A DNA stretch of 64,000 nt, taken from Actinomycetota bacterium. Its GTDB lineage: Bacteria; Actinomycetota; Coriobacteriia; Anaerosomatales; UBA912. Both the position numbers and the translations under genes were made by a program. The notes under the pieces are model-generated. The model saw only the letters and a program-made list of their open reading frames with translations. It did no database searches and had not been told where the DNA came from. This document shows, piece by piece, positions 37,228 through 57,693 of this stretch. Within the stretch, counting starts at the first letter, position 1. Every line of letters starts with the position of its first letter. The stretch is taken from the NCBI GenBank assembly GCA_023488435.1, contig JAMDCK010000022.1:23551-87550 (forward strand), written 5' to 3'.

Positions 37228-38349
37228 TCAGATCCCGATCATTGCCCGAAGGCGCAACAACACCAGCGCCAACATCTCTCGAACCGAAGGAGAGATCATG
37301 ACGACAGCAGTGATGACTGCGATTCCAGCACCCGCCAACAACAGAAGGTCGCTCGTTCCGACCGTCGACCGATATAGCTTGTTCACGCCCTTGGCGTCGA
37401 CCAGACGATGACCGACCTTCACCCTCACGATGAATGTGGAAGCCATCCCTTTACGCCCTTTGTCCAGGTAATCGACAAGGTTGGCGTGGGTTCCGACCGC
37501 CACGATCAACTCAGAGCCCGATTCGAATGCCAGCAGTAGCGCGAGATCCTCGCTGGTTGCCGAGAGCGGCCACGGCTGAGCGGTCAGGCCCAACCCTTGG
37601 ATGCGCTCCATCCCGGGAGCCCTGCCGTCCTCGTAGGCATGAACGATCAGCTTGGCTCCGGATCGCAAAGCCTCATCTGTCACCGAGTCCATATCGCCGA
37701 CGATAACATCAGGCTTAAAACCGGCCTCTAGGATCGCATCGGCACCGCCATCGACACCGATCAGTACGGGCCTGATCTCCCGAATGTAAGACTTCAGGGC
37801 ATTGAGGTCCTTCTTGTAGTCGTAACCCCTGACTACGACCAATGCATGTTTGCCGTGAAAGTCGATGCCGGTTTCCGGAACAGCAATCGCTCCGGTCAAC
37901 AGCTCCTTCTCGTTCTCAAGGTAGTCCAAGGTGTTCCTGACGAAACTATCGAGTTGCGCTCCCATCTCACTGTCGGCTTCAAGCATTGAGGACTCGATGG
38001 ATTCAACTGTCAGCCACTGTCCAGAAGCTATGAGTTCGCCTTCAAGGAACACATCGTGCCCGATGATGTTTATGGCCGCTCCATCTTGGATGCGCTCGAA
38101 GACGGCGGGCCCGACGTCATCAAGGATGTGAACCCCACCTCTGGCCAAAAGGATCGGGCCGGTGTTCGGATATGCGCCCGAAATGGAGCGAGAGGCATTG
38201 ATGACGCACTCAACGCCGACTCCGAGAAGACCTTCTGCGCTGACCTTGTCGATGTCCTGGTGGTCGATGATGGCGATATCATCGCTGCTCAAGCGCTTGA
38301 CGAGGTCCTTGGTGCGACTATCGATCCTAGCGGTTCCCGACAAGCGCAT
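37228..38349 (-). CDS. steA: SteA family protein (Rv1697-like, cell-division associated), intact copy
   Basis: Start refined to the ATG at 38349 (MRLSGTARIDSRTKDLVKRLSSDDIAIIDHQDID...). Has a C-terminal TM helix. The track ORF 37228-38562 is an upstream extension. Confidence 0.8.
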   Translation of the reverse strand: MRLSGTARIDSRTKDLVKRLSSDDIAIIDHQDIDKVSAEGLLGVGVECVINASRSISGAYPNTGPILLARGGVHILDDVGPAVFERIQDGAAINIIGHDVFLEGELIASGQWLTVESIESSMLEADSEMGAQLDSFVRNTLDYLENEKELLTGAIAVPETGIDFHGKHALVVVRGYDYKKDLNALKSYIREIRPVLIGVDGGADAILEAGFKPDVIVGDMDSVTDEALRSGAKLIVHAYEDGRAPGMERIQGLGLTAQPWPLSATSEDLALLLAFESGSELIVAVGTHANLVDYLDKGRKGMASTFIVRVKVGHRLVDAKGVNKLYRSTVGTSDLLLLAGAGIAVITAVVMISPSVREMLALVLLRLRAMIGI

Positions 38350-39482
38350 CCTTGCGACCCTCCGTCCTGGATCGCTTTGCACTAGCGAGCAGCTCGCTCG
38401 CGTGTGCGAGTCCGGTCTCGCTGGAACCCCCCGAAAGCATCCTCGCCACTTCGGCGATTCGGGCTTCATCGGCGACGTGATCGACCTGCGTGCGCACTCC
38501 GTCAGAGTCGACAGACTTGGTGACAACCAGATGCCGGTCAGCGAATGCCGCCACCTGGGCAAGGTGCGTGACGACCAAAACCTGATGCTTTTCGGCCAAC
38601 AGGCTCAAGCGTCGGCCGATTGCGGTGGCCGTGGCGCCTCCGATTCCGGCATCAACCTCGTCAAAGACGAGGTCGATGCCGGTTTCCGGAACAGCAATCG
38701 CTCCGGTCAACAGCTCCTTCTCGTTCTCAAGGTAGTCCAAGGTGTTCCTGACGAAACTATCGAGTTGCGCTCCCATCTCACTGTCGGCTTCAAGCATTGA
38801 GGACTCGATGGATTCAACTGTCAGCCACTGTCCAGAAGCTATGAGTTCGCCTTCAAGGAACACATCGTGCCCGATGATGTTTATGGCCGCTCCATCTTGG
38901 ATGCGCTCGAAGACGGCGGGCCCGACGTCATCAAGGATGTGAACCCCACCTCTGGCCAAAAGGATCGGGCCGGTGTTCGGATATGCGCCCGAAATGGAGC
39001 GAGAGGCATTGATGACGCACTCAACGCCGACTCCGAGAAGACCTTCTGCGCTGACCTTGTCGATGTCCTGGTGGTCGATGATGGCGATATCATCGCTGCT
39101 CAAGCGCTTGACGAGGTCCTTGGTGCGACTATCGATCCTAGCGGTTCCCGACAAGCGCATCCTTGCGACCCTCCGTCCTGGATCGCTTTGCACTAGCGAG
39201 CAGCTCGCTCGCGTGTGCGAGTCCGGTCTCGCTGGAACCCCCCGAAAGCATCCTCGCCACTTCGGCGATTCGGGCTTCATCGGCGACGTGATCGACCTGC
39301 GTGCGCACTCCGTCAGAGTCGACAGACTTGGTGACAACCAGATGCCGGTCAGCGAATGCCGCCACCTGGGCAAGGTGCGTGACGACCAAAACCTGATGCT
39401 TTTCGGCCAACAGGCTCAAGCGTCGGCCGATTGCGGTGGCCGTGGCGCCTCCGATTCCGGCATCAACCTCGTCAAAGACGAG
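37861..39482. repeat. Perfect head-to-tail tandem duplication, 2 x 811 bp (37861-38671 and 38672-39482)
   Basis: The two units read identically base for base. Identical track ORFs are offset by exactly 811 (37931-38131/38742-38942, 38056-38385/38867-39196, 38070-38282/38881-39093). The flanks diverge at once (37860 a vs 38671 g; 38672 g vs 39483 a). Confidence 0.95.
38327..39160 (-). CDS. Chimeric ORF created by the 811-bp duplication: SteA residues 1-163 fused in frame to RecN residues 441-554
   Basis: 277 codons. The junction at 38672/38671 reads ...AIAVPETGID|LVFDEVDAGIGG... and falls exactly on codon boundaries of both parents. It carries the native steA translation start region (copy at 39160). 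Expression is unknown. Confidence 0.6.
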   Translation of the reverse strand: MRLSGTARIDSRTKDLVKRLSSDDIAIIDHQDIDKVSAEGLLGVGVECVINASRSISGAYPNTGPILLARGGVHILDDVGPAVFERIQDGAAINIIGHDVFLEGELIASGQWLTVESIESSMLEADSEMGAQLDSFVRNTLDYLENEKELLTGAIAVPETGIDLVFDEVDAGIGGATATAIGRRLSLLAEKHQVLVVTHLAQVAAFADRHLVVTKSVDSDGVRTQVDHVADEARIAEVARMLSGGSSETGLAHASELLASAKRSRTEGRKDALVGNR

Positions 39483-40802
39483 AACCGGGACAGGATCCGC
39501 GCCGCTGAGCACGCTTTTCAAAGCGAGCATGACGCGCGATAGCTCGCCGCCGGATGCGATCTTGGCGAAAGGGCGATATGGCTGTTCTGGACCGGGAGCG
39601 TAGGTGAATTCAACGCGATGAGGACCATCGTTGCTCCACGCATCGAGTTCAAGGGGCTCCATCGAGACCTCGAATCTTGCCCCGTCCATCGACAGGTCAG
39701 CGACCGCATCATGCAATCTGCTGACGAAACCCGGAATCGCAGCGGACCTGATCGAGGCCAGAGTCTCCGCCACAACCTGGTAATCGGCGACAGCGGCCTC
39801 CACTCTGGATGAGGCTCCAGCGATGCTGTGGTCCGCATCCTCTAACAGCGCAAGGCGCGCGACCGCATCGGCCCGGCACTGCAAGACCTCTTCGATGGTC
39901 ACACCGTACTTCTTCTTGAGCAGGGTCAGGGTAGCAAGTCGGTCGTGCCCGAACTCGAGCTGATCGGTATCGTGCTCCAAACTCTCGCCGTACTCACGCA
40001 GCTCCCCCGCGATGTCATCGAGCCCGCCGAGGAGAACCTCTAGGCGACCTCGGAATGCCTCTACCGCGGGATCGAGCGAGGCAACTCGCGTGAGTGCCAC
40101 GAGGGCTCGGCTAGCGCCTTCAGTGGCGCCGTCCTCGTCCCTCAGGGACCCGAATGCCTCGGCGGTGGCTTCCGTCAGCCTGCCGCTGTGCTGCAAGATG
40201 GCCACACGTGCTGCGATCTCCTCGTCCTCCCCCATCGCAGGGGCGACCGAGTCGATGTCGGCAATCAAAGACGTCAGCTCCTCAGCCTCACGCTGAAGAT
40301 CCCCGATCGTCGCCTGAAGTTTCGCAAGAGCCTCGGTGGCAGCGAAGAACTCTGTGCGAGCCGCAGAATACGTCTCCCTAGCCGCCCGTGCGGTCGTGCC
40401 AATGTAGCCGTCAAGGTAAGAGACGTGGTTTGCGGGTCGCAACAACGATTGATGGTCATGTTGGCCGTGAAGATCTACCAGAGGGGCGAGCCCTCCCGCC
40501 AGCGCCGAAACCGATGACATTTCCCCGTCGACAACACAACGGGAGCGTCCATCGACTCCCACTCTCCGCTTGACGAGGATCTCGCGGGCTTCATGCTCGA
40601 ACACGCCCTCTACCAGAGCTTCCGTAGCACCGGCTCGGACCATTCTCGAATCCGACCGGCCGCCTAACAACAACTTCAGGGCTACCACGAGTGCGGTCTT
40701 TCCTGCGCCCGTCTCTCCAGAGATGACGTTCAAACCAGGCTCGAACTCCAGCCAGGCCTCATCGATCAAAGCAAGATCGCGAACGTGCAACTCGCGAAGC
40801 AC
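39138..40802 (-). CDS. recN: DNA repair protein RecN (SMC-like ATPase), intact
   Basis: Walker A GETGAGKT, long coiled coil, signature SGGELSR, Walker B LVFDEVDAG. 554 aa. Confidence 0.95.
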   Translation of the reverse strand: MLRELHVRDLALIDEAWLEFEPGLNVISGETGAGKTALVVALKLLLGGRSDSRMVRAGATEALVEGVFEHEAREILVKRRVGVDGRSRCVVDGEMSSVSALAGGLAPLVDLHGQHDHQSLLRPANHVSYLDGYIGTTARAARETYSAARTEFFAATEALAKLQATIGDLQREAEELTSLIADIDSVAPAMGEDEEIAARVAILQHSGRLTEATAEAFGSLRDEDGATEGASRALVALTRVASLDPAVEAFRGRLEVLLGGLDDIAGELREYGESLEHDTDQLEFGHDRLATLTLLKKKYGVTIEEVLQCRADAVARLALLEDADHSIAGASSRVEAAVADYQVVAETLASIRSAAIPGFVSRLHDAVADLSMDGARFEVSMEPLELDAWSNDGPHRVEFTYAPGPEQPYRPFAKIASGGELSRVMLALKSVLSGADPVPVLVFDEVDAGIGGATATAIGRRLSLLAEKHQVLVVTHLAQVAAFADRHLVVTKSVDSDGVRTQVDHVADEARIAEVARMLSGGSSETGLAHASELLASAKRSRTEGRKDALVGNR

Positions 40803-40803
40803 C

Positions 40804-41661
40804 CTACCTCCTCAAGAATTCATCGCGTACGACTTCGAAGAAGTCCCGACCCTGCAACTTCAGGAGCAAGACCTCGTGAGAAGCGGGCCCGATCTCGACC
40901 TTGTCGATGGCGCTTCGGCAGGGCATCATCACGCCGTCGACGTACAGACAGGCATCTCGCCTGGCCGGATTAGGGAACCGCAACTCCACGCGATCGCTCA
41001 TAGAAAGCACCATTGCACGTTGGATCAGGGTATGTGGAGCAACTGGGATCACGATCTGACACTGCACATCGGGCGAAACGATCGGCCCTCCCGCGGAAAG
41101 CGCATACGCCGTCGAACCGGTCGAAGTCGCGATGATCACTCCGTCGCAAGTGAAAGTCGCCATGTTCATCCCATTGATATCCAGCGCGACCTCGATCACC
41201 CGCCCGGAGCCCGAGCGACCCACGAAGACCTCGTTGAGCGCCCTGTATCGGCCTCCTACCCGCCCATCCATCGTCACTTCGGCCGCAAGTGTGGTGCGCC
41301 GCTCTAAGCGCCCTTCGCCGGCCAACGCCGAAGCAACGACTTCGGTCAGTCGCTTTGCCGAAGCTCCGGTCATGAATCCCAGCCGGCCCAGGTTTATGCC
41401 GAGTATCGGAACCTCGACATCGCCAAGGATGTGCACCGCCTTCAAGATGGTGCCGTCGCCGCCCAGCGCCACCGCGAGTATCGGCGAGCCGATCTCCGAA
41501 GGCGACACACCATACGACCCGACGCCCATCTCGGCAGCGTCATCGAGCGTCAGGACCGGGTCAAAGCCGCCTTCATCAAGCCAAGCGATGAGCTCGGCAA
41601 CCGCCGAGGAGCTCGCCTGCTTCGCTGTATTCGGAACCAGTAACACTCGCACCGGCATCAT
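40804..41661 (-). CDS. nadK: NAD kinase
   Basis: GGDGT motif (LGGDGTILK) and NEVFV. Start refined to the ATG at 41661, overlapping the tlyA stop (ATGA). Confidence 0.9.
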   Translation of the reverse strand: MMPVRVLLVPNTAKQASSSAVAELIAWLDEGGFDPVLTLDDAAEMGVGSYGVSPSEIGSPILAVALGGDGTILKAVHILGDVEVPILGINLGRLGFMTGASAKRLTEVVASALAGEGRLERRTTLAAEVTMDGRVGGRYRALNEVFVGRSGSGRVIEVALDINGMNMATFTCDGVIIATSTGSTAYALSAGGPIVSPDVQCQIVIPVAPHTLIQRAMVLSMSDRVELRFPNPARRDACLYVDGVMMPCRSAIDKVEIGPASHEVLLLKLQGRDFFEVVRDEFLRR

Positions 41662-42458
41662 GCCCCTAACGTCTTGTGTGCATCGGCGACCGTAGTCTCG
41701 ATATCGATGCCCGATTCGCCACAAGGCCCCTTGTTCGAGGCCCACAACCAATACTCAATGTTACCCTCTGGGCCCTTGATAGGCGAATTGCAGATTCCGG
41801 CAACGCGCAAGCCAAGCCCACAGACGTGCTCCGACACCTTGTGCAGGACTTCGACGTGTAGCGCAGGATCTTTCACCACACCCTTTTTTCCCACACGGCC
41901 CTTACCAACTTCGAACTGAGGCTTAGCCAAAGCCAAAAGATGCGCGTCCGGAGTAAGCATCGAGACCACCGGAGCGGCCACCAGCGTCAGGCTGATGAAG
42001 GACACATCGATGACAGCCAGCTCGAAAGGCCCACCCAAAACGGCGGGGTCCACATGCCGGATATTCGTCCGCTCAAAGACACTCACCCGTGGATCGTTGC
42101 GCAAACTCCACGCAAGCTGACCGTACCCGACATCCACAGCAGCAACGTTCGTCGCCCCACGCTGCAGCAAGCAATCGGTAAATCCCCCCGTCGAAGCACC
42201 CACATCGATCGCACGGCGTCCTGCGACATCCACACCGAAAGTCTCGAGCGCCCCTTTGAGCTTCAAGCCACCGCGGGACACGAACTCCAACGCCGATGAG
42301 ACCTCTAGCACGGCTCCCTCATCGACCTGGTGGCCGGGCTTGTGCACCACCACCGAATCGGCCTTCACTGTTCCGGCCAACACTGCTGCCTGGGCCTTCT
42401 CTCGGGACTCGAAAAGCCCCCGATCAACGAGTGCGATGTCGATCCGCTGGCGCGCCAT
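41658..42458 (-). CDS. tlyA: TlyA family rRNA 2'-O-methyltransferase (hemolysin A-like)
   Basis: S4 domain at the N-terminus (MARQRIDIALVDRGLFESREKAQ), FtsJ-like SAM motif DVGASTGGFTD. Start refined to 42458. Confidence 0.9.
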   Translation of the reverse strand: MARQRIDIALVDRGLFESREKAQAAVLAGTVKADSVVVHKPGHQVDEGAVLEVSSALEFVSRGGLKLKGALETFGVDVAGRRAIDVGASTGGFTDCLLQRGATNVAAVDVGYGQLAWSLRNDPRVSVFERTNIRHVDPAVLGGPFELAVIDVSFISLTLVAAPVVSMLTPDAHLLALAKPQFEVGKGRVGKKGVVKDPALHVEVLHKVSEHVCGLGLRVAGICNSPIKGPEGNIEYWLWASNKGPCGESGIDIETTVADAHKTLGA

Positions 42459-44370
42459 CTTCCTGTCTCTCCATAGTGTCGACGCCTGGCATGCCGAGAA
42501 GCCGCCCGAGTACCGCGCCTCGCACACCTTCGGGCGTAAGGCCGATCTCTTCAAGCAGCTTGTTCGTCGATCCGTGGGTGACGAAGCAGTCCGGAATCGC
42601 CATTCTCAGGACCGGGGTCTCAATCCCTAAGTCGGCGAGCGTTTCGAGAACGGCGGCCCCGAAGCCACCCGCTCCCGTATTCTCCTCGACAGTCACCACC
42701 AGCCTGTGACTCAAGGCAGCCTTGGAGATCGCGACGATATCGAGGGGCTTGAGCCACCTCATGTCCACGACGGTCGCCGAGACCCCGTCTGATGCGAGCA
42801 GCTCAGCGGCCTTCTCGGCGGTCTGGGTCATCCTGCCGATCGCGAGAATCGCGACATCGGTGCCTTCACGCACCGGCCTGGACTCGCCGGCAGGCAGCTC
42901 GACTGGGGTAGCTGGAATCGCCTCGCCGATGCCGAACCCGCGCGGGTATCTGATCGCGACCGGTCCATCGGCGGCAAGCGCTGTGCGAAGGGCGCTCGTG
43001 AGCTCGGCCTCGTTGGAGGGCGCGAGGATCATCAGGTTCGGGATCGACCGTAGGTAGGTGAGATCGAACACGCCATGGTGTGTGGGGCCGTCCTCGCCGA
43101 CAAGCCCGGCGCGATCGACGCAGAAGGTCACCGGCAGGTTCTGCAGCGCGACATCCATCATGAGCTGGTCGTAAGCGCGCTGCAGGAAGGTCGAGTAGAT
43201 GGCGACCACCGGCCGCAAGCCGCCCAGCGCAAGTCCCGCGGCCAATGCGACCGCGTGTTGCTCGGCGATACCGACATCGAAGAACCGCTCAGGGAATCGC
43301 TCGGCAAAAGTGTCGAGGCCGGTTCCGGCGGGCATGGCGGCCGTGATCGCAACGATGCGCTCGTCACGCTCAGCCTCGGCCACGAGCGATCTGCCGAAAA
43401 CCTCGGTGTACGAAAGCAGCCCGTTCTTCTTCGAGGAGGTCTTGCCAGTAGCCACCGAGAACGGGCCGACACCGTGGAACTCGTCGGGTTTGTCCTCTGC
43501 GTGCTCGTATCCTGCCCCTTTGCGCGTGACGCAGTGGATGATGACAGGGCCGTCAACGAGCTTCGCCCTCTCCATCGCCGAGGAAACCGCTTCGATGTTG
43601 TGGCCATCGATGGGGCCGACGTACTTGAGGCCCAGCTCCTCAAAGAGCATCCCCGGGACCACCAGCTGCTTGAAGGACTCCTTCGCTGCCTCACCGGCGG
43701 CGACCATGACCGCGCCCAGGCGGGTCCTTGCCAGCGCTGACTCGACGTCATCGCGGAGGCGATTGTAGCGCGGGTCGAGGCGGACCTTGGCCAGGTAGCT
43801 GGCGAGCGCACCGACGTTCTGCGCGATCGACATCTCGTTGTCGTTCAGCACGATCACGAGCGGCGTTCCGATATGCCCGACGTGATTCATCGCCTCGAAG
43901 GCCATGCCTCCCGTAAGCGAGCCATCCCCGATGACCGCGACGACCGTCTCGTCCCTCCCGGCTGCGTCGCGCGCCAGCGCGAGCCCGTGCGCAACAGACA
44001 GCGAATCCGAGGCGTGCCCAGTGTCGAAGGCGTCGTACTCGCTTTCGGAACGCTTCGGAAAGCCGCACAGGCCGCCGTACTGCCTCAAAGTGCCGAAGCG
44101 GTCCCTTCGGCCGGTAAGAAGTTTGTGGACGTAGGATTGGTGCCCCACATCCCAGATGATCTTGTCCTTGGGGCACTCCAGCGCCAGATGGATACCGATC
44201 GTGAGCTCGACCACTCCCAGATTGGGAGCCAGATGACCGCCGGTTTTCGCGACCGTGGCGATGAGCTCTTCGCGGATTTCAGCAGCCAGGGTTTGAAGCT
44301 GAGCCGCCGAAAGGCCGCCAAGCCCACAAGGCGACTCGATGGTGTCCAGTATGCGTTCAGTAGTCAACCG
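42424..44370 (-). CDS. dxs: 1-deoxy-D-xylulose-5-phosphate synthase
   Basis: GGHLAPNLG, DVGHQSY and GDG...GMAFEAMN TPP motifs. Proposed TTG start at 44370 with GAGGA 7 nt upstream ((M)TTERILDTIESP...). The track ORF's first 45 aa overlap xseB. Confidence 0.92.
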   Translation of the reverse strand, partial: RLTTERILDTIESPCGLGGLSAAQLQTLAAEIREELIATVAKTGGHLAPNLGVVELTIGIHLALECPKDKIIWDVGHQSYVHKLLTGRRDRFGTLRQYGGLCGFPKRSESEYDAFDTGHASDSLSVAHGLALARDAAGRDETVVAVIGDGSLTGGMAFEAMNHVGHIGTPLVIVLNDNEMSIAQNVGALASYLAKVRLDPRYNRLRDDVESALARTRLGAVMVAAGEAAKESFKQLVVPGMLFEELGLKYVGPIDGHNIEAVSSAMERAKLVDGPVIIHCVTRKGAGYEHAEDKPDEFHGVGPFSVATGKTSSKKNGLLSYTEVFGRSLVAEAERDERIVAITAAMPAGTGLDTFAERFPERFFDVGIAEQHAVALAAGLALGGLRPVVAIYSTFLQRAYDQLMMDVALQNLPVTFCVDRAGLVGEDGPTHHGVFDLTYLRSIPNLMILAPSNEAELTSALRTALAADGPVAIRYPRGFGIGEAIPATPVELPAGESRPVREGTDVAILAIGRMTQTAEKAAELLASDGVSATVVDMRWLKPLDIVAISKAALSHRLVVTVEENTGAGGFGAAVLETLADLGIETPVLRMAIPDCFVTHGSTNKLLEEIGLTPEGVRGAVLGRLLGMPGVDTMERQEDGAPADRHRTR

Positions 44371-44377
44371 GGCATCC

Positions 44378-44680
44378 TCACCGCTCAAGAGAGTCGGAAC
44401 CCTCCACGCTCTCGCTGTGTGCCTTGCTCGCGCCCTCGGCGCGGTCATCGCTCGCATTACCGTCGGGCGTTTCGGACTCGACCTCGCCGTCAGCTGGACC
44501 CTCAAGGGCCTGCCTCAGATCCGTCTGGTCGGAAAGCTCGGTGCAGATGTTGGCTAGCCGAATCCCCTCCTCAAGCAGGTCCAAGCTCTGCTCCAGGGAG
44601 ACATCCTTCTTGCGAACCTGCGTGACGATCTCCTCGAGACGCTCGCGCGCCATCGTGAATGAGTAGCGCTCATCGGACAT
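44378..44680 (-). CDS. xseB: Exodeoxyribonuclease VII small subunit with long acidic C-terminal extension
   Basis: SFTMARERLEEIVTQVRKKDVSLEQSLDLLEEGIRLANICTELS matches the XseB helix-hairpin pattern. 100 aa. Confidence 0.85.
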   Translation of the reverse strand: MSDERYSFTMARERLEEIVTQVRKKDVSLEQSLDLLEEGIRLANICTELSDQTDLRQALEGPADGEVESETPDGNASDDRAEGASKAHSESVEGSDSLER

Positions 44681-45110
44681 CCTCGGGCCTCCAACCTTCC
44701 TTCATCCGCGCCGCCGAATCAGCCAACCTGCCGAGAACCCCGTTGACGAACTTCGAGGAGTCCTCTCCCCCGTAGAGCTTAGCGAGCTCGACGGCCTCGT
44801 TGATCGATACCGACACCGGGACGTCATCCGCGTACACGATCTCGTAAGCGGCGATGCGCAGGATATTACGGTCGACAAGCGGCATGCGGGCGACCGTCCA
44901 GTGCTCGGAGATGCGGCCCAGAAGGTCGTCGATCCCGCTCTGGTGTTGCTCCACGCCCTGTGACAGCTCAAGACCGAACGGAAGCAGCTCTCCCTCTTCG
45001 CGGCTGTAAGAGCCATCGCGCATGATATGCTCCACGCTCTCACCAGTGATTTCTCGCTGGTAGAGGATGTGAAGGGCCTGCTTCCTGGCCTTGGATCGCT
45101 CTATCATCAT
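44670..45110 (-). CDS. nusB: Transcription antitermination factor NusB
   Basis: Start refined to the ATG at 45110 (MMIERSKARKQALHILYQ...). DRNILRIAAYEI motif. Confidence 0.9.
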   Translation of the reverse strand: MMIERSKARKQALHILYQREITGESVEHIMRDGSYSREEGELLPFGLELSQGVEQHQSGIDDLLGRISEHWTVARMPLVDRNILRIAAYEIVYADDVPVSVSINEAVELAKLYGGEDSSKFVNGVLGRLADSAARMKEGWRPEDVR

Positions 45111-45135
45111 TCGGCAAACACCCGCCCGATAAACC

Positions 45136-45489
45136 TCATGCAGGAAAATCGATGCCGTCGATATAGACGTCGACAGCATCGGTCTTCAGGCCGACTTGGC
45201 TAGCCAGCGCATCGGCGATCGCTTCCTGCGTCCGTTGGGCGACTTCCCTGAGCGGGTGGCCGTACAGGGCTCGCACGTGGATAGCAACGTTGACTTCCGA
45301 GGAATCGCCCAGGCTGACCTCGACGCATCGACCGGGACCCATGCTACTCGACTTGCGGACCATTCCTGCAAGCCCCGGATAGCAAACCTGGGCCACGCCA
45401 TCGACACTCTCGGCGGCCAAGGTCACAATCGTTTCAAGGACGCCGGGCGCTATGGCCAGTCCTTCGATCTTTATCTCTTCAGACATCAT
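45136..45489 (-). CDS. Asp23/Gls24 family envelope stress protein
   Basis: 117 aa. IAPGVLETIVTLAAESVDGV... is typical of Asp23. Lies between accC and nusB, as does Bacillus yqhY. Confidence 0.85.
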   Translation of the reverse strand: MMSEEIKIEGLAIAPGVLETIVTLAAESVDGVAQVCYPGLAGMVRKSSSMGPGRCVEVSLGDSSEVNVAIHVRALYGHPLREVAQRTQEAIADALASQVGLKTDAVDVYIDGIDFPA

Positions 45490-45512
45490 ATAACCCCGCA
45501 GACTTCTCGGTT

Positions 45513-46862: not shown

Positions 46863-48754
46863 CAGCTGCTCGGTGCCGGGTCGTAGTAGAAGAGCACGGT
46901 ACCGTACTCGACCGGCGTTGCGTCATCGACGCACACTTCCTTGATGACTCCGGATTCCTCGGCAGTGATCTCGTTCATGAGCTTCATGGCTTCCAGGATG
47001 CAAAGCGGCTGATTGACGCTGACGGCATCGCCGACGCTCACGAACTCAGGTGCGCCGGGTGACGGCGAGCGGTAGAAGGTGCCGACCATCGGGGCCGTGA
47101 CCTGCTTCCATGCCGAAGGGCGCTGGTCGCCGTTGGGCGAGGTGGCCGCAGCCAACACAGGTGCTGCCGAAGGAGCCGCCGCAGCCGCCGGTGCGGCTAC
47201 GACCGGGGCCGCCTCTTGTGCAGAAACCCCACCCTTGCGGATTGCGATCTTCGCGCCGCCCTCCTCGATGACAATCTCGCTGACATCCGATGCCTCGATG
47301 ATCTTCACGAGTTCCTTGATCTGGTTCACGTCCATGGACTGATCTCCCTCTTTGGCTGACTTGATCTCTTCGCCCATCATGAATACGGCGTTCTTCAGGC
47401 CGTCCTTGTTTGCGGTCAGGTAAGCGCGTGCCTCGTTCGGGAAGAGGGCGTACATGAGCACGTCCTCCTCGGATTTGGCCAGATCACCAATCTCGGCTTC
47501 GACGTCGGCGTATGTGGTTGTCGCCATCGAGCCCGGACGTACGTCCGGATCGAGCGGAGCTGTTCCGCAAAGAACCTTCGCCACGACATCTGGGTCCATC
47601 GGACCTGGCGCCCTGCCGTACAGACCGCGAATGTAATCCTTCATCTCCTGGGGCACGATGTTCCAGCGCTTGCCAGTGAGCACGTTGATGACAGCCTGTG
47701 TGCCGACGATCTGCGAGAGTGGCGTGACGAGCGGCGGATAGCCGACCTCTGCGCGGACTCTTGGGATCTCCGCAAGGACATCAGTCAGCCTATCGCTGGC
47801 GTTCTGCAGCTCCAGCTGACTAAGCAGGTTCGAGAGCATGCCTCCTGGCACCTGGTGGCTGAAGACCTCCATGTGCATGAGTGATGTCACACCGCGCTTG
47901 AAGTTATTGCGGATGCGGACATCCTCCCAGTACTCGGCGATCTCGAAGAGCAGCTCCAGGTCGATGCCTGTGTCGTACTTCGATTCCTTCAGAGCCGCGA
48001 CGATCATCTCCACCGCAGGCTGACTGTTCCCAAAGGCAAGCGCCACGACCGCTGTATCCACGATCTGCGCCCCGGCCTCAATGGCTTTGAGGTAGTTCAT
48101 GGGAGCCATTCCGCCGATGTAGTGGCAGTGCACCCGGATCGGAAGCCCGATCTCCTTCTTGAGTGCCGCGACCATCTTTTCGGTCCGAAACGGGGTGAGC
48201 ATTCCGGCCATATCCTTGATACCGATCAAATCAGCGCCGGCGTCTTTGAGCTCTTGAGCGTGCTCGATGTAGGAGTCCAAGGTGTGGACCGGGCTCACAG
48301 TGTAGCTGAGTGCGCCCTCGAACAGTCCCCCACACTCCTTGATCGCCTCGGCGGTCACCTGGACGTTTCGGATGTCGTTCAGGGCATCGAAGTTGCGGAA
48401 AACATCGATTCCGTTGCGCTTAGCGGCGAAGACGAACCTTCGGCAAAGGTCATCGGAGTAGTGCCTGTAGCCGACCAAGTTCTGGCCGCGGAGCAACATC
48501 TGCAGCGGAGTGTTCGGGCAATGCCGCTTGATGGCCCTCAGGCGATCCCAGGGGTTCTCGTCAAGGAAGCGCAGGGCCGCGTCGAATGTCGCGCCGCCCC
48601 AAACCTCGAGCGACCAATAACCGACCGAGTCCATCTTCTCGAGGATTGGCAGCATGTCGCCCAGACGCATCCGAGTCGCCCACAGGGACTGATGTGCGTC
48701 GCGCAAAGTGGTATCTGTGATGAAGACGCGTGCCATGCCGTGCTCCTTGCCCAA
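46862..48754 (-). CDS. Carboxyltransferase (oxaloacetate decarboxylase alpha / pyruvate carboxylase subunit B type) fused to a C-terminal biotinyl carrier domain
   Basis: N-terminus ITDTTLRDAHQSL (HMGL-like TIM barrel), Ala/Pro linker, C-terminal biotinylation motif CILEAMKLMNEI. Its stop overlaps the accC start by 1 nt. Confidence 0.9.
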   Translation of the reverse strand: MGKEHGMARVFITDTTLRDAHQSLWATRMRLGDMLPILEKMDSVGYWSLEVWGGATFDAALRFLDENPWDRLRAIKRHCPNTPLQMLLRGQNLVGYRHYSDDLCRRFVFAAKRNGIDVFRNFDALNDIRNVQVTAEAIKECGGLFEGALSYTVSPVHTLDSYIEHAQELKDAGADLIGIKDMAGMLTPFRTEKMVAALKKEIGLPIRVHCHYIGGMAPMNYLKAIEAGAQIVDTAVVALAFGNSQPAVEMIVAALKESKYDTGIDLELLFEIAEYWEDVRIRNNFKRGVTSLMHMEVFSHQVPGGMLSNLLSQLELQNASDRLTDVLAEIPRVRAEVGYPPLVTPLSQIVGTQAVINVLTGKRWNIVPQEMKDYIRGLYGRAPGPMDPDVVAKVLCGTAPLDPDVRPGSMATTTYADVEAEIGDLAKSEEDVLMYALFPNEARAYLTANKDGLKNAVFMMGEEIKSAKEGDQSMDVNQIKELVKIIEASDVSEIVIEEGGAKIAIRKGGVSAQEAAPVVAAPAAAAAPSAAPVLAAATSPNGDQRPSAWKQVTAPMVGTFYRSPSPGAPEFVSVGDAVSVNQPLCILEAMKLMNEITAEESGVIKEVCVDDATPVEYGTVLFYYDPAPSS

Positions 48755-48777
48755 TTAAGGATCGAACGTCCGGCCCG

Positions 48778-49338
48778 CTAGACGCGGGTGACGTAGCGCC
48801 CATCGCGTGTATCAATACGTAGCTTATCGCCGGTCTCGACAAAAAGCGGAACCTGCACCACGGCACCGGTCTCAAGTGTGGCCGGCTTGGTTCCGCCCTG
48901 GACCGTGTCGCCCTTGAATCCGGGATCGGTCTCCGTGACTTCGAGTTCAACGAACATCGGAGGCTCCACGCCCATATACTCGCCGTCTGCGGTGAGCATC
49001 TCAACCTCGTCGGTCTCGCGGAGCCACTTAGCCGCCGAGCCTACGAAATCGGAATCAAGCTCCACCTGCTCGTAGCTCTGCGCGTCCATGAAGTGGAACG
49101 TCACGCCATCTGAGTACAGGAACTGCATCTTCTTGTTCTCAACTCGGACGTCATCGAACTTCTCGCCAGCCCGAAACGTGTAATCAACGATCCGGCCGGA
49201 CTTGAGCTCCTTTAGCTTGGTGCGCACAAACGCACCTCCCTTACCGGGCTTGACGTGCTGGAACTCCACAATCACCCATCGCTTGCCTTCATGGACGATG
49301 CACATACCGTTCTTGAAATTGCTCGTAGATACCGCCAT
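48778..49338 (-). CDS. efp: Elongation factor P
   Basis: 186 aa. VKPGKGGAFVRTKLK carries the modified-Lys loop. Confidence 0.97.
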   Translation of the reverse strand: MAVSTSNFKNGMCIVHEGKRWVIVEFQHVKPGKGGAFVRTKLKELKSGRIVDYTFRAGEKFDDVRVENKKMQFLYSDGVTFHFMDAQSYEQVELDSDFVGSAAKWLRETDEVEMLTADGEYMGVEPPMFVELEVTETDPGFKGDTVQGGTKPATLETGAVVQVPLFVETGDKLRIDTRDGRYVTRV

Positions 49339-49362
49339 ATAGTCAGTACTTTCCTTCCAGGA

Positions 49363-50615
49363 TCAAAGCTCGAGGAGCTCACGCGGAGAACCGCTCAACA
49401 GGGTGTAACCCTCGGACTCCACAACAGCGAGGTCCTCTATTCTAACACCGCCAAGCCCCGGGATGTAGATACCAGGCTCCACAGTCACCACACTTCCCGT
49501 GAGCACAGCCGCCCTGCCGCGAGGGCTCACTGTAGGCAACTCATGAACCTCCAGCCCAACACCATGCCCTAGCCCGTGGCCGAAGCGTCCGGCAAACCCC
49601 GCCGATTCGATGACTTCGCGAGCCTTCGCGTCGATATCCTGGCCGCGCAGTCCACCTCGAAGCGCCTGCAAGCCGGCAGCGTGCGCCTCCAGTACGACCG
49701 CGTGAAGCTCCCTCTGCTGTTCCGACGCCTTGCCGATGACGACTGTCCGGGTCATGTCGGCGCAATAGCCATCGACTTTCGCTCCAAGGTCGATCGTCAC
49801 GAGATCCCCAAGCTCAAGCACCTTTTCCGAGGCGATCGCATGCGGCCTCGAGGAGTTCAGCCCGCTCGCCACGATGGGCGGGAATGCGAGGCCGTCGGCG
49901 CCCTCAGAGCGCATGAACGCCTCAATCTCCCAGGCGATCTCCCGCTCGGTAACTCCAACGCCCAAACGAGTGAGAATATGCTCGAAAGCGCGATCCGTGA
50001 GCTTGGCCGCTTGCTGGATTCGATCTAGCTCCTCAGGCTCCTTGACCTGACGCTGCTCCTCGATCCACTGGTCGATCATCTCAACATTGCCGTCGAAGCA
50101 CTCAGAGATGAAACGAAATCGTCCGTACGGCATCGAGGATTCGAGCGCGAGCGAACCGACTCCTGAACCTGCAAGTACGTCACACAATTCGACGTAAAGG
50201 GACTGGTCGACTGCGCGGACTGACCAGTCCGTGCCCACAGCGGCCTCAACGGCCGCCTCGGTGTACCGAGAGTCTGTGAATGCCTGGGCAATTGACTCTG
50301 TCACCAGACACGCAACGTTCGCGTGACTGAACCTGCAAGTACGTCACACAATTCGACGTAAAGGGACTGGTCGACTGCGCGGACTGACCAGTCCGTGCCC
50401 ACAGCGGCCTCAACGGCCGCCTCGGTGTACCGAGAGTCTGTGAATGCCTGGGCAATTGACTCTGTCACCAGACACGCAACGTTCGCGTGATCGTCGAAAA
50501 CACCCTCAAAGCCGGTGATGTATCGGATGTTGACCACATCAGTGACCACGATCGCTGGAATCCCAGAATCCGCAAGCCGCTTTCGGAGCAGTCCCAGCCT
50601 GCGGCCAGGGTTCAT
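49363..50615 (-). pseudogene. Xaa-Pro aminopeptidase/dipeptidase (M24B, PepP/PepQ type) disrupted by an internal 164-bp tandem duplication
   Basis: The 5' ORF runs from the ATG at 50615 ([26 protein letters not shown]...) and ends out of frame at 50301. The 3' ORF 49363-50304 carries the whole M24 catalytic domain (DLGAKVDGYCADMTR, HGLGHGVGLEVHE, TVEPGIY). Deleting one repeat unit restores a single 362-codon gene. Confidence 0.85.
50163..50490. repeat. Perfect head-to-tail tandem duplication, 2 x 164 bp (50163-50326 and 50327-50490)
   Basis: The units were compared base by base and are identical. The flanks differ at once (50162 c vs 50326 a; 50327 c vs 50491 t). 164 is not a multiple of 3. 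Confidence 0.97.
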
Positions 50616-51055
50616 CGGGCCACTCCAGCAGCCGCGATCGCAGCGTGGACGCCAAGGACATACGAATATGCCCCGAAGCCGCATATCTGTCCCGAGCACA
50701 CGGGAGCGATGACACTGCTTTTCCTGAAATCCTCTCTTGCGGAGATATTGCTCAGGTGGACCTCGACCACTGGCACCTTACAGCCAGCCACAGCATCCCT
50801 GATAGCGTAAGAATAGTGGGTGAAAGCTCCTGGATTGAACACGACGGCATCGTATCTGCCGACAGAATCCTGTAAGGCATCGATCAACGATCCCTCGTGA
50901 TTGGACTGGAAGAAGCCGACGTCCACGCCTAAGGCGCTGGCTTCCTGAGCCACTGTGGCTTCCACATCATCAAGGGTTACATTGCCGTAGACTTCAGGCT
51001 CACGGGTTCCCAGCGTGTTGAGATTCGGTCCGTTCAGTACTAGAACTCGCAACAT
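50612..51055 (-). CDS. aroQ: Type II 3-dehydroquinate dehydratase
   Basis: LNGPNLN..LG.REP..YG N-terminus, 147 aa. Confidence 0.93.
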
Positions 51056-51079
51056 GACGCTCCCCCTGTTCGGTGAGGC

Positions 51080-52189
51080 TCACATGGACTTGTGGCGTTC
51101 GATATCGGCAGCCAGAAACGCATTCAGCTCGTCGGCAATAGTTCTCTCGTCTACCGGGACGACTACCCACGATCCGGGTTCGGTCGCAAAGACGAAGCGT
51201 ATCTCACCAGCGCGCACCTTCTTGTCGGACCGCATGGCATAGCGTACCGCATCGACGTCCAAATCGGCCAGAGCTGGACTCAGACCAAGTGCGTCGAGCA
51301 GGGCGACTTGCCTAGTGCCGAAGTGTTCGGAGGCCATGTCGAGCCGAACAGAGAGCCCTGCTGCGAACCTGAGTCCGGCTGCGACGGCAAGACCATGCGG
51401 AATGACGCCGTAACCAGCAACCTTCTCGATCGCGTGTGCCAAAGTGTGTCCAAGATTGAGGGATTCCCTGGGGCCAGCCTCGCGTTCGTCGGCTTGCACG
51501 ACCGAAGCCTTGGAGCGCACACAGTCGGCCACAACTTCCGTAAGAACCGCAGTCTCACCTGCAAGCAGACTCTTCGAGTCGCGCTCCAGCCGGGCCAGAA
51601 GCGATTCACCATCCAGGAATGCGGTCTTGACCACCTCCGCAAGTCCGCTCTTGAGCTCACTTTCCGGCAGCGTTGCGAGGAGCGCCGTGTCCGCGATGAC
51701 CGCCCGTGGCTGGACGAACACTCCGGCTAGGTTCTTCCCGGCAGCCAGATCCACCCCCGTCTTCCCGCCCACCGAAGAATCCACCTGGGACAGGAGTGTT
51801 GTGGGAATCTGGTAGTAGTCGATGCCTCGCATATAGACCCCGGCCGTGAAGCCTGCGATGTCGCCCACTACTCCGCCGCCGAAAGCGATGATCGCTTCAT
51901 CTCGCTCGACGCGTTCATGGGCCAGCTGCTCCAGTAGCCGACCGGCTAACTGCCAGTTCTTGGATTGCTCGCCGGGAGGTACCTGCATGACTGTGAACGA
52001 TATTCCTGCGCCTGCAAGCGACTTTTCGAGTACGGACCCGTGAATTTCGTATGCGGTCCGGTCGGCGATTATCGCGACTCTTGGTCGACGAAGAAGGTCA
52101 GCAAGGACGGGTCCCGTGGCGCCGAGCGCACCAGGGCCAACAAGAACCTCGTAGCTACCCCCTGAGCACTGGACTGGTACCACAATCAT
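51080..52189 (-). CDS. aroB: 3-dehydroquinate synthase
   Basis: GGGVVGD nucleotide motif, metal ligands in LNLGHTLAHAIE, 369 aa. Confidence 0.93.
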   Translation of the reverse strand: MIVVPVQCSGGSYEVLVGPGALGATGPVLADLLRRPRVAIIADRTAYEIHGSVLEKSLAGAGISFTVMQVPPGEQSKNWQLAGRLLEQLAHERVERDEAIIAFGGGVVGDIAGFTAGVYMRGIDYYQIPTTLLSQVDSSVGGKTGVDLAAGKNLAGVFVQPRAVIADTALLATLPESELKSGLAEVVKTAFLDGESLLARLERDSKSLLAGETAVLTEVVADCVRSKASVVQADEREAGPRESLNLGHTLAHAIEKVAGYGVIPHGLAVAAGLRFAAGLSVRLDMASEHFGTRQVALLDALGLSPALADLDVDAVRYAMRSDKKVRAGEIRFVFATEPGSWVVVPVDERTIADELNAFLAADIERHKSM

Positions 52190-52707
52190 GGCGTTGTCCT
52201 GTCCGAGAGCACCTTCAATGCGGTCTGGGCCACGTCAGAGATAGAAAGCCCACGAGTGTCGATGGTTGCGTCGGCAAGTGCGTCGTAGAGGCACTCGCGC
52301 GCAGCCAGTAGCGATGTGGCTGCCATGGAGCCCGCAGGGCCCGCAAGCAAGGGTCTGGTCGAAGTGTCGCCGATCCGGGCCAGCGCCTCCGCGGCATCGA
52401 CCTTGAGGTACAAGACCATGCCCATACGCTTCAGTGCCGCCCTGTTGGCAGCAGTGAGGACGACTCCCCCTCCGCACGCGACCACCGAAGGCGTCGAGTC
52501 TTGCAAAGCAATGAGTGCGTCGGTCTCCAACTGCCTGAACGCCACTTCACCCTGGGACTCAAAGATCTCAGGAATGGTGCGTCCGGCATTGGTGACAATG
52601 GACTCATCCAGATCGATGAAGGGAACGTCGAGATCCGCTGCCAGCAGTCGCCCAACGCTCGACTTGCCCGCCCCCATAAAGCCGATCAGGAACAGATGCC
52701 CTACCAT
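52186..52707 (-). CDS. aroK: Shikimate kinase
   Basis: Start refined to the ATG at 52707 (MVGHLFLIGFMGAGKSSVGR, Walker A). The track ORF's upstream 47 aa lie inside aroC. Confidence 0.9.
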   Translation of the reverse strand: MVGHLFLIGFMGAGKSSVGRLLAADLDVPFIDLDESIVTNAGRTIPEIFESQGEVAFRQLETDALIALQDSTPSVVACGGGVVLTAANRAALKRMGMVLYLKVDAAEALARIGDTSTRPLLAGPAGSMAATSLLAARECLYDALADATIDTRGLSISDVAQTALKVLSDRTTP

Positions 52708-53858
52708 GACTCGAGCCTCTGCAGGTAAGCGTGCTGTGCAACCTGGATGTCCATCAAGTTGTTTCCGCCGAAGGCTTCGATGTGCGCAGCAGCCAACACA
52801 AGGCACACCTCGGCTTCCGCAACCACAGCTGCTGCAGGGACCGCACACACGTCGGATCGCTCCTTGGAGGCGTCCACGATTGCGTGAGAGTCTATGTCGA
52901 CGGACGCTAGTGGCGTCATCAGTGTCGGAATCGGTTTCATCGCTGCGCGAACGACCAGCGGCTGTCCGTTGGTCATGCCACCTTCGAGACCGCCAGCGTG
53001 ATTGGTCAGCCGATGATAGCCCCGAGTAGCATTGTGATAGATCTCGTCGTGTACTTGGGATCCGACCTGCCCCGCCGAAGCGAACCCAGTGCCGAACTCG
53101 ACGCCCTTGATCGCCGGTATGGATATCACCGCTGCAGCCAATCGTGCGTCGAGACGCTGATCGGCCTGTGCGTACCCACCGAGTCCGGGCACAAGGCCCG
53201 TCGCAGTCACATAGAAGGTCCCGCCGAGGCTCTCCCCTGCGGCTTGAGCCTGATCGATAGCCACACGCATCCTGCCTGATGCCTCAGCATCCGGACAGCG
53301 CAGGTCACTACCCTCAACCACCTTGTGGTCAATAAGCTCGGGATTGAGAGGGGCTTGGATCGACACTTCGCCGACAGAAGCAACAAAGGAGTGAACCTCG
53401 ACTCCAAGTTGGCGGAGGAAGGCGCGTGCCACCGCGCCGGCTGCCACCCTAGCGGCAGTCTCTCTGGCACTTGCACGCTCAAGGATGTCGCGCACATCAC
53501 GGGTCCCGGTCTTCATGATGCCAGCTAGGTCTGCATGGCCGGGACGAGGAGCCTTCACTCGGGCTTCTTCGCGAAGATGGCCAGGTGCGGCCTGCATCAC
53601 ATCGGTCCAGTTGTCCCAGTCGCGATTGGCCACAGTCAGGGCGATAGGCGACCCAATAGTACTGCCAAGCCGCACCCCCGCCGAGATAAGCGCCCTGTCA
53701 CGCTCGATACGCATACGCCCGCCACGGCCGTAGCCGACTTGGCGGCGTGCTAGATCATGGTCGATCATTGCCTGATCGATGGGAATGCCAGCAGGGACGT
53801 CACTAATGATGGCAGTCAAGGCTCGTCCGTGGGACTCGCCGGCGGTGACATAGCGCAT
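52701..53858 (-). CDS. aroC: Chorismate synthase, intact
   Basis: [12 protein letters not shown]-terminus, GRSSARETA-like motif (ERASARETAARVAAG), 385 aa. Confidence 0.97.
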   Translation of the reverse strand: MRYVTAGESHGRALTAIISDVPAGIPIDQAMIDHDLARRQVGYGRGGRMRIERDRALISAGVRLGSTIGSPIALTVANRDWDNWTDVMQAAPGHLREEARVKAPRPGHADLAGIMKTGTRDVRDILERASARETAARVAAGAVARAFLRQLGVEVHSFVASVGEVSIQAPLNPELIDHKVVEGSDLRCPDAEASGRMRVAIDQAQAAGESLGGTFYVTATGLVPGLGGYAQADQRLDARLAAAVISIPAIKGVEFGTGFASAGQVGSQVHDEIYHNATRGYHRLTNHAGGLEGGMTNGQPLVVRAAMKPIPTLMTPLASVDIDSHAIVDASKERSDVCAVPAAAVVAEAEVCLVLAAAHIEAFGGNNLMDIQVAQHAYLQRLESW

Positions 53859-55065
53859 GGGGATTCTTCCTCCGAGCTTGGTTGGCTACTTGCCCACTGG
53901 AGTGATGACCCCTGGCTCATTCGGGTCAACTACCGCACCAACCCCGACTGCAAGTCTGATGGAGGCGTCACCATAGGCGAATGTAGCAGATCGATCGGCG
54001 ATACTCCGAACCATCCAGGGAGTACCAGCGATGGACTCTCCTGCGGCCAAGGTGTGGGTTACGCCGTTCAAGTCAACGACCACGTTTGGAACCCCATCCT
54101 CGACAACGATGTTGACGAGAGTCAGTCGATCGACCCCCGCAGTCCCCGTAGCTACGGCACCCGGGGTGACAGCTGCTGACGGTCGAATAACGGGCTTGAA
54201 GATATCCCTGAATGTGAATAGCTCCGACGAAGGTATCGCTGCAGGCTCAACGATCTCTTCGGGCACAGGCGTCGGTGACGTCTCGGCTGGCTGTTCCACA
54301 ATGACTTCGATCTCATCGAGGGCCTGCGCCTGCATCACATCGGTCCAGTTGTCCCAGTCGCGATTGGCCACAGTCAGGGCGATAGGCGACCCAATAGTAC
54401 TGCCAAGCCGCACCCCCGCCGAGATAAGCGCCCTGTCACGCTCGATACGCATACGCCCGCCACGGCCGTAGCCGACTTGGCGGCGTGCTAGATCATGGTC
54501 GATCATTGCCTGATCGATGGGAATGCCAGCAGGGACGTCACTAATGATGGCAGTCAAGGCTCGTCCGTGGGACTCGCCGGCGGTGACATAGCGCATGGGG
54601 ATTCTTCCTCCGAGCTTGGTTGGCTACTTGCCCACTGGAGTGATGACCCCTGGCTCATTCGGGTCAACTACCGCACCAACCCCGACTGCAAGTCTGATGG
54701 AGGCGTCACCATAGGCGAATGTAGCAGATCGATCGGCGATACTCCGAACCATCCAGGGAGTACCAGCGATGGACTCTCCTGCGGCCAAGGTGTGGGTTAC
54801 GCCGTTCAAGTCAACGACCACGTTTGGAACCCCATCCTCGACAACGATGTTGACGAGAGTCAGTCGATCGACCCCCGCAGTCCCCGTAGCTACGGCACCC
54901 GGGGTGACAGCTGCTGACGGTCGAATAACGGGCTTGAAGATATCCCTGAATGTGAATAGCTCCGACGAAGGTATCGCTGCAGGCTCAACGATCTCTTCGG
55001 GCACAGGCGTCGGTGACGTCTCGGCTGGCTGTTCCACAATGACTTCGATCTCATCGAGGGCCTGC
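53590..55065. repeat. Perfect head-to-tail tandem duplication, 2 x 738 bp (53590-54327 and 54328-55065)
   Basis: Identical track ORFs are offset by exactly 738 (53757-54179/54495-54917). The junction and flanks were read directly (53589 g vs 54327 c; 54328 g vs 55066 t). Confidence 0.95.
53886..54596 (-). CDS. Chimeric ORF created by the 738-bp duplication: AroC residues 1-90 fused in frame to residues 63-208 of the pilus-cluster protein
   Basis: 236 codons. The junction reads ...NWTDVMQA|[12 protein letters not shown].... It keeps the aroC ribosome-binding region but lacks the TM helix of the pilus-cluster parent. Expression is unknown. Confidence 0.6.
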
Positions 55066-55250: not shown

Positions 55251-55270
55251 GTAAAGTCATCCTTCATCTC

Positions 55271-55894: not shown

Positions 55895-55911
55895 CTCAGT
55901 GAAGCCTCATC

Positions 55912-57672: not shown

Positions 57673-57693
57673 CGGAGGCCCCCTTCTGCCATC

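Follow-up and report, generated by a model that had tools for sequence, protein, structure and literature searches.

Three exact tandem duplications private to one record of a conserved Coriobacteriia housekeeping region

Three tandem duplications of 811, 164 and 738 bp in a Coriobacteriia genome record are exact, blunt and private to that record, and removal of the second copies restores the sequence seen elsewhere. Judging from sequence comparison, we consider it very likely that all three are errors or edits that arose while the record was being built and not natural features of the genome. The underlying region is an ordinary, strongly conserved Coriobacteriia housekeeping array, and a new duplication mechanism is not indicated. 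For users of the record, the consequences are two spurious fusion open reading frames (SteA-RecN and AroC-208-aa protein), a falsely broken pepP and 1,713 extra bases. If such an error density holds genome-wide, the source assembly merits a re-check against its reads.

Geometry of the duplications and genes affected

The window, i.e., the whole stretch of DNA analyzed (64 kb, positions 1–64000), is a housekeeping region comprising the dcw cluster, steA, recN, dxs, efp, pepP, aro genes and type IV pilus genes. A self-repeat search returned exactly three families of direct repeats of at least 60 nt (D1, D3 and D2, in order of position) and, in agreement with the first-pass annotation, no further one in the first 37 kb. 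All three are direct and head-to-tail, lie within 17 kb on one co-oriented stretch, and together account for the added 1,713 bases. The first copy of D1 (811 bp, 37861..38671) covers the 3' end of recN (stop at 38327) and the 5' end of steA (start at 38349), and is followed across a blunt junction between 38671 and 38672 by an extra copy (38672..39482) that is 100% identical to it. The 164-bp unit D3 (50163..50326, extra copy 50327..50490) lies within the N-terminal (Creatinase_N) part of pepP, and its second copy puts pepP 2 bases out of frame. The 738-bp unit D2 (53590..54327, extra copy 54328..55065) holds the 5' end of aroC (start at 53858) and the 3' end of a 208-aa pilus-cluster gene. 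Identity is 100% in each pair, no sequence is common to the three units, and the exact match is just as long as the period at every junction, leaving 0 bp of microhomology; on each of these points the initial description of the duplications was accurate. The window contains 0 N bases, and no scaffold mark stands at any of the junctions, an observation that counts against an artefact.

The three duplications had been described as an unusual cluster with junctions that are hard to explain. Under uniform placement, three points within 17.2 kb of 64 kb are not significantly clustered (p = 0.18). Sequence-blind breakpoints are expected to give zero microhomology at 55% of junctions and at all three with p = 0.17, as for random cuts, and both breakpoints of each unit appeared unremarkable in a register-free comparison. 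Two of the three had also been called in frame, yet only 738 is divisible by three (811 mod 3 = 1; 164 mod 3 = 2). Both D1 boundaries do fall on codon boundaries and the chimeras created by D1 and D2 are in frame, but the combined chance of this is ~1/9 and is not meaningful. The same two were further said to straddle gene boundaries, which holds for D1 and D2, where the flanking genes are intact; D3 is internal to pepP.

All genes affected are encoded on the minus strand. Around D1, an intact steA-like gene (37228..38349; 373 aa, TPK_catalytic and SteA-like_C domains, exact product in at least 23 public contigs) and an intact recN (39138..40802; 554 aa) are accompanied by a chimeric reading frame (38327..39160) in which SteA residues 1–163 continue in frame into the 114 C-terminal residues of RecN. 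Around D2, aroC (chorismate synthase, 52701..53858; 385 aa) and the 208-aa gene (54624..55250), which adjoins pilO and has no assigned function, are likewise intact, and a second chimera (53886..54596) is composed of ~90 N-terminal residues of AroC followed in frame by ~146 C-terminal ones of the 208-aa protein. The claim that nothing essential was lost needs correcting at D3, where the frameshift breaks one conserved gene: pepP (Xaa-Pro aminopeptidase, M24; 49363..50615), which would encode 362 aa if intact and does so in all relatives, is split in the window into a 104-aa N-terminal fragment (50301–50615) and a C-terminal open reading frame (49363–50304). Neither the two fusions nor the truncated PepP fragment was found in a collection of 15 billion proteins, and the intact parents of these products are present in 23–41 blocks on record. 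The product of a further open reading frame (3358–4113) was also not on record, probably because its called start differs, and 4169–4993 was used as query in its place. Selected gene amplification was rejected as an origin. No unit contains a complete gene, only gene ends or an internal pepP fragment, and there is thus no gain in dosage.

Comparison with independent assemblies

The same DNA occurs at 99.9–100% identity in ~20 independent public assemblies, comprising three NCBI MAGs, one ENA assembly and ~15 separate sequencing runs. Comparison with an independent assembly had been proposed as a check on the duplications, and it went against them, as none of the near-identical contigs carries D1, D2 or D3 twice. 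The D1 stretch is single copy in 10 out of 10 assemblies covering it (L091–L100), the D3 stretch in all 13 distinct near-identical assemblies, and the D2 stretch in all 11 distinct near-identical assemblies as well as, by gene order, in two diverged strains. The junction 30-mers (CTCGTCAAAGACGAGGTCGATGCCGGTTTC, GCAACGTTCGCGTGACTGAACCTGCAAGTA and TCATCGAGGGCCTGCGCCTGCATCACATCG) are absent from all 32 related loci. Once the second copies are deleted, the window becomes colinear with the public contigs in single alignments with 0–3 mismatches per 15–22 kb. The collapsed window shows 3 mismatches to L091 (27228–49160), 2 to L081 (37967–60240) and 1 to L110 (49004–64000), and alignments of this kind cover the whole window.

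Relative to the pooled contigs, the window carries no private point substitution, yet it carries three private insertions of 164–811 bp. Structural changes of this size are otherwise absent between the window and the near-identical assemblies, and the sole natural indel of the kind is a 14-bp duplication polymorphism (window 5939–5952) common to several independent assemblies. As this polymorphism is shared across assemblies, real duplications are detectable in these data. The closest relatives are Coriobacteriia (best match 75% at the amino acid level for an OadA-like protein query against GTDB contigs), which confirms the phylum that had been guessed, Actinomycetota. In JGI metagenomes, a collection without this organism, a 25-nt query from the very end of the D3 unit had no match, and one of 22 nt from the very end of the D1 unit had two unrelated chance matches.

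Joining of overlaps at contig ends or at boundaries of strain variation was considered as a general explanation and rejected, because neither coincides with the boundaries of D1 or D3. Variable patches occupy 51146–51476, the sequence from 52572 in one contig (L082) and the pilus region from ~54.3 kb, and public contigs end at ~43.2, 46.0–46.15, 51.4 and 55.08 kb. The only boundary close to where the hypervariable pilus region starts is the right end of D2. No public contig ends at a unit boundary, which counts against an artefact, and consequently no graph branch is shown there in those samples.

Possible origins of the extra copies

The absence of the extra copies from independent assemblies and the return of colinearity upon their removal fit the class of false duplications. 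Two of the readings offered in the first-pass annotation, an assembly or consensus artefact and a deliberate or synthetic modification, agree with duplications that exist only in the record and come without any private substitution. As to how the extra copies entered, we infer a sequence-blind step that would have emitted one segment twice. Such a step could have been an error of assembly or finishing software, for example a small assembly-graph loop walked twice via a junction edge from few chimeric or minor-variant reads, overlapping contigs joined end to end with the overlap left unmerged, or the local reassembly of a polisher. Alternatively, tandem copies may have been inserted deliberately in silico. 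From the sequence, we would give these two routes roughly equal weight. Overlaps of 164–811 bp exceed the usual de Bruijn k-mer overlaps, a point that counts against an artefact, and for such an error to occur three times within 17 kb, either the assembly would have to be very poor or the region locally patched.

Two features of the junctions count against blind copying. The first is a hairpin completed by the D1 junction (38646..38682; 17-nt arms with 16 of 17 positions paired and the loop AAA), which contradicts the earlier statement that no inverted repeats are involved. As DNA it folds with −18.4 kcal/mol (z −6.5), and in the single-copy sequence only its inner 6-bp stem exists, ending exactly at the breakpoint at 38671. 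The coincidence of junction and hairpin has p ~9e-4 per junction under random placement and ~3e-3 for three junctions, and the signal falls to p ~0.06 without a fixed register. The start of the D1 unit offers a 10/11-nt match on which re-priming could occur, and the D1 junction looks more like polymerase snap-back with template switching than like a blind copy. The second feature is the motif GCCTGC at both the start and the end of the D2 unit, such that two copies of it abut at the junction (p ~4e-4 in exact register). Slippage at D2 was rejected, as the 7-mer GGCCTGC present at both breakpoints predicts a period of 732 bp and 738 bp is observed. Neither D3 nor D2 displays priming homology or a template-switch signature at its junction.

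The hairpin geometry suits polymerase template switching and could reflect real molecules behind a false consensus. Junction molecules of low frequency, derived either from rare duplications in an in vivo subpopulation or from template-switch chimeras of in vitro amplification, may have been promoted to consensus when an assembler traversed a loop. Emitting one graph edge twice would make the copies identical by construction, and deep sequencing of bacteria yields many chimeric reads as well as many junctions from spontaneous rearrangements (PMC3411829). However, no such signature is present at D2 and D3, and assemblers normally prune low-coverage junction edges. We regard this origin as unlikely, and it is a sub-case of the preferred explanation instead of a true alternative, as the consensus would still be wrong.

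A genuine alternative is that the sequenced clone underwent one error-prone pass of replication restart, break-induced or MMBIR/FoSTeS-like, with three backward template switches on the same strand within 17 kb. D1, D2 and D3 would then represent one very recent event fixed only in this clone, which suits their common direct orientation on a co-oriented stretch; the zero divergence between copies and the lack of private substitutions would fit extreme recency. D1 would resemble a hairpin snap-back followed by re-priming on the 10/11-nt match at the unit start, and at D2 the additional GCCTGC may have been inserted as a short templated stretch beside the 7-nt direct repeat GGCCTGC. Duplications with blunt junctions have, moreover, been reported in bacteria (bioRxiv 10.64898/2026.05.22.727201). 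Against these points, the duplications are missing from the ~20 near-identical assemblies, the clone would have to dominate a metagenome-style consensus, and D3 and D2 offer no homology for priming. The three do not cluster significantly in the window, and the hairpin signal weakens in free register as described above. In addition, exact direct repeats of 164–811 bp would be expected to be lost unless selected, and these units have no selectable content; work on Salmonella from the Roth laboratory reportedly found that exact direct repeats are removed by homologous recombination when selection is absent. We therefore consider a single pass improbable, and its most specific form, a low-processivity break-induced-type pass in a wild Coriobacteriia clone with three back-jumps in 17 kb and D1 formed via hairpin snap-back, decidedly so. 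If true, bacteria would have a sub-kilobase counterpart of MMBIR/chromoanasynthesis, caught here at zero age, and with read support the window would offer an unusually clear view of clustered template switching in a bacterium that has not been cultured.

Three separate blunt duplications by a Ku/LigD-type or similar end-joining activity that is unusually high in the lineage are extremely improbable: the organism belongs to Actinomycetota, some members of which possess NHEJ, and the 0 bp of homology at all three junctions lies within the 0–4 bp taken for such joining, but random breakpoints are expected to give the same at 55% of junctions, a lineage trait should mark other members and 0 of ~20 near-identical assemblies carry any of the duplications, three independent fixations without an accompanying point mutation would be very improbable, and the window lacks ku and ligD. 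These two genes were likewise not found in the flanking public contigs examined, according to gene tables in which a few called genes are without a Pfam family and none is Ku or LigD. The first-pass annotation had offered such a process as a property of the lineage or culture; as a lineage property it is not supported, since the same haplotype occurs without the duplications in many samples, and as a one-off event in the sequenced clone it would be improbable.

Classical routes to tandem duplication were rejected as well. Microhomology or slippage needs a match longer than the period, and match and period are equal at all three junctions. RecA-dependent unequal exchange (between IS, rrn or REP sequences) is countered by boundary 30-mers that are unique and by the lack of further direct repeats ≥60 nt in the window. 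A mobile element or target-site duplication is incompatible with copies that abut directly and consist of housekeeping gene sequence. The view that no IS element or recombinase is involved was borne out, with a xerC/D-like gene near 24–25 kb being the only integrase-family gene.

Relation to known duplication systems

The hairpin geometry of D1 would fit MMBIR/FoSTeS, known in eukaryotes as chromoanasynthesis, but the signature is present at only one of the three junctions. To our knowledge, clustered sub-kilobase duplications in bacteria have not been firmly traced to this process. Short-junction tandem duplications in enterobacteria (Salmonella, PMC3411829) resemble those of the window in being head-to-tail, located in repeat-free DNA and independent of IS and rrn sequences. 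At their junctions, the verified examples share 11 bp of microhomology or more, in contrast to 0 bp at the three junctions described here.

Large blunt duplications (0–1 bp of junction homology) have been reported from evolved Pseudomonas fluorescens SBW25, for which NHEJ or template switching was proposed (bioRxiv 10.64898/2026.05.22.727201). That real bacterial duplications with such junctions exist counts against an artefact. Like the duplications of the window, those in SBW25 lack flanking repeats. However, they span 285–767 kb with many whole genes, arose under selection and have read support (bioRxiv 10.64898/2026.05.22.727201), whereas the units of the window measure less than 1 kb, hold only parts of genes and have no support outside the record.

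False "homotype" duplications, documented by the Vertebrate Genomes Project, form a class of assembly error (PMC8081667). They were described from long-read vertebrate assemblies, at gaps or contig boundaries, and measure about one read length, unlike the units of 164–811 bp in the gapless window. As in the window, they are adjacent, near-perfect extra copies of a single-copy stretch that are exposed by independent data, and they can pass for exon or gene duplications (PMC8081667).

Three exact tandem duplications and their gene context

Tandem Repeats Finder and a repeat finder, followed by exact extension, identified exactly three families of direct repeats of at least 60 nt across the whole window, namely the head-to-tail duplications D1 (811 bp unit; 37861-38671 and 38672-39482), D3 (164 bp unit; 50163-50326 and 50327-50490) and D2 (738 bp unit; 53590-54327 and 54328-55065). 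These boundaries and the core description agree with the first-pass annotation. Copies are 100% identical in all three cases, D1, D3 and D2 have no sequence in common, and the window contains no N bases. In each duplication the exact match is just as long as the period, leaving no microhomology at the junction.

All genes in the duplication-bearing part of the window lie on the minus strand, in the order mctB-like, steA-like, recN, NAD kinase, tlyA-like, dxs, xseB, nusB, asp23, biotin carboxylase, an oxaloacetate-decarboxylase/pyruvate-carboxylase-type subunit, efp, pepP, aroQ, aroB, aroK, aroC, a 208-aa gene, pilO, pilN, pilM and more pilus genes (Pfam assignments from identical products in public contigs), and the dcw/ftsZ cluster lies within the first 25 kb. 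None of the units contains a complete gene. D1 covers the overlap of the recN stop and steA start and leaves both genes intact, creating a chimeric ORF (38327-39160) in which SteA(1-163) is fused in frame to the C-terminal 114 residues of RecN. D2 likewise covers the boundary of the 208-aa gene and aroC, both of which remain intact, and creates an in-frame AroC-N/208-aa-C chimera (53886-54596). D3 falls wholly inside pepP and shifts its frame, since 164 is not a multiple of three.

Near-identical assemblies and natural variation

Related contigs from three NCBI MAGs (GCA_021847205.1, GCA_027358295.1 and GCA_023382015.1), one ENA assembly and about 15 separate sequencing runs matched the window at 99.9-100% identity (blastn) and jointly tiled all of 1-64000. 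Around each duplication, the two flanking window alignments shared exactly one unit length of subject sequence (811, 164 or 738 bases), and the subject therefore holds a single copy. After deletion of the second copies, the collapsed window aligned with related contigs in single end-to-end HSPs (L081, 37967-60240, two mismatches; L085, 43177-60240, one; L110, 49004-64000, one; L091, 27228-49160, three). Junction 30-mers of the duplications occurred in 0 of 32 related loci, and single-copy boundary 30-mers in 10 (D1), 15 (D3) and 13 (D2) of them. The comparison with relatives and independent assemblies that the first-pass annotation had suggested thus yielded a single copy in 10, 13 and 11 distinct near-identical assemblies, respectively. 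Both chimeric ORF products and the truncated PepP N-fragment had no record in the protein collection, and their intact parents were indexed in 33-41 of its blocks.

These contigs, many in number, were retrieved through exact-protein look-ups with Efp, SteA, a Mur ligase, a pilus-cluster protein, DUF3866 and a Cu-oxidase_4 protein. The closest matches in the GTDB representative collection were Coriobacteriia at 66-75% amino acid identity. Three NCBI MAGs of the species are ~100% identical, yet nothing in that collection exceeds 75%; it apparently lacks or masks the representative of the species.

Relative to the pooled near-identical contigs, the window carries zero private point substitutions. 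Apart from the three duplications, the window differs in structure from these contigs only at a 14-bp tandem duplication polymorphism (AAAACACCTTAGAA; single-copy allele at window 5939-5952), which spans the stop codon of a Pro-rich protein gene. One copy is present in the window, L105 and L121, and two in six loci (L101-L103, L119, L120 and L122) from four assemblies, with L101/L119 and L103/L122 each being the same contig under two handles. This polymorphism is genuine and serves as a model of real duplication polymorphism in the population; its two-copy allele recurs in several independent assemblies, so such polymorphisms are detectable in these data. The affected plus-strand ORF (4898-5950), divergent from ftsZ, encodes a membrane protein without a Pfam family, and a 9/27-nt periodic repeat at 5849-5930 encodes its proline-rich (PAPP)n C-terminal tail.

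Further variation was observed elsewhere. The segment at ~54300-57900 (208-aa gene, pilO, pilN, pilM and the next gene) is hypervariable, with L082 and L083 at only 72-79% nucleotide identity between flanks of ~91-100% in otherwise close strains, which suggests that the type IV pilus assembly genes are under diversifying selection or have undergone allelic replacement. Four contigs (L084/L112, L086 and L087), 100% identical elsewhere, carry ~50 substitutions in ~330 bp of aroB (51146-51476), a dense patch resembling a short tract of recombination. At 43116-43210, inside dxs, the majority of per-run contigs from different samples terminate, from both sides, and from this point L083 falls to 94%; this is a recurrent assembly break and probably a strain-variation boundary.

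Breakpoints and origin of the duplications

Blunt junctions and clustering had initially seemed striking. When blunt duplications of the same sizes were placed randomly in the collapsed sequence, 55% showed zero apparent microhomology (three zeros, p = 0.17), and three points fell inside 17.2 of 64 kb with p = 0.18; both features are therefore expected of placement blind to sequence and position.

Two features, one at D1 and one at D2, were less expected. In the single-copy sequence at D1, breakpoint 38671 coincides exactly with the end of the 3' arm of a small 6-bp hairpin (CTCGTC-AAA-GACGAG). As the 11 nt that open the unit (GTCGATGCCGG) are complementary at 10/11 positions to the 11 nt immediately 5' of this hairpin, the junction forms a hairpin with 17-nt arms (38646-38682; 16/17 pairing), folding as DNA at -18.4 kcal/mol (z -6.5) vs. 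-11.1 (z -1.2) in the single-copy context. Of random-placement trials, ~9e-4 gave 10 or more cross-junction pairs. The D2 unit has GCCTGC at both start and end (~4e-4 in that exact register), and the 7-mer GGCCTGC occurs at both breakpoints (53589-53595 and 54321-54327). Classical microhomology was rejected for D2, because it would give a 732-bp rather than the observed 738-bp period, which the register of the 7-mer does not explain. D3 showed no signal, and register-free comparison of breakpoint neighbourhoods was unremarkable in all three (D1 inverted, p ~0.06; D2 direct, p ~0.24). The D1 hairpin is taken as a real but weak hint, not proof, that a polymerase snapped back and switched template, either in vivo or in vitro.

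The duplications are present as described but very probably do not belong to the organism's genome. Decisive here is that they occur in this record only, that ~20 independent assemblies match the collapsed sequence perfectly, that private substitutions are absent, and that the undiverged copies have no functional content and break one conserved gene (pepP). Either software error or deliberate in-silico editing, the artefact and synthetic options raised at first reading, very probably accounts for them, with roughly equal weight on each. Most simply, one stretch would have been emitted twice during record construction, e.g., by walking an assembly-graph loop twice or joining overlapping contigs unmerged, making copies identical by construction; deliberate insertion of tandem copies would predict the same sequence. 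On account of the D1 hairpin, the balance tips slightly towards a route with physically existing junction molecules. Alternatively, the sequenced clone may have undergone one real event, an error-prone replication pass with three back-jumps; this would account for co-orientation, proximity, zero age and the D1 geometry, but is improbable, as the clone must dominate its sample and D2 and D3 lend no support. As established in Salmonella duplication studies, exact direct repeats of such length are substrates for loss by homologous recombination. The unusual, NHEJ-type duplication process proposed as a lineage trait is unsupported and highly improbable, because relatives would retain such events and do not, and because fixation of three independent neutral or deleterious duplications without any point change is very unlikely. 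The duplications thus matter mainly as a warning about the quality of this record and are otherwise of low interest.

Verified spontaneous duplications in Salmonella have junction microhomology of at least 11 bp (PMC3411829), in contrast to its absence from D1, D3 and D2. Blunt junctions alone prove nothing, since very large duplications that are real and arose under selection can have them too (bioRxiv 10.64898/2026.05.22.727201). Among documented classes of assembly error are false duplications at the boundaries of contigs (PMC8081667).
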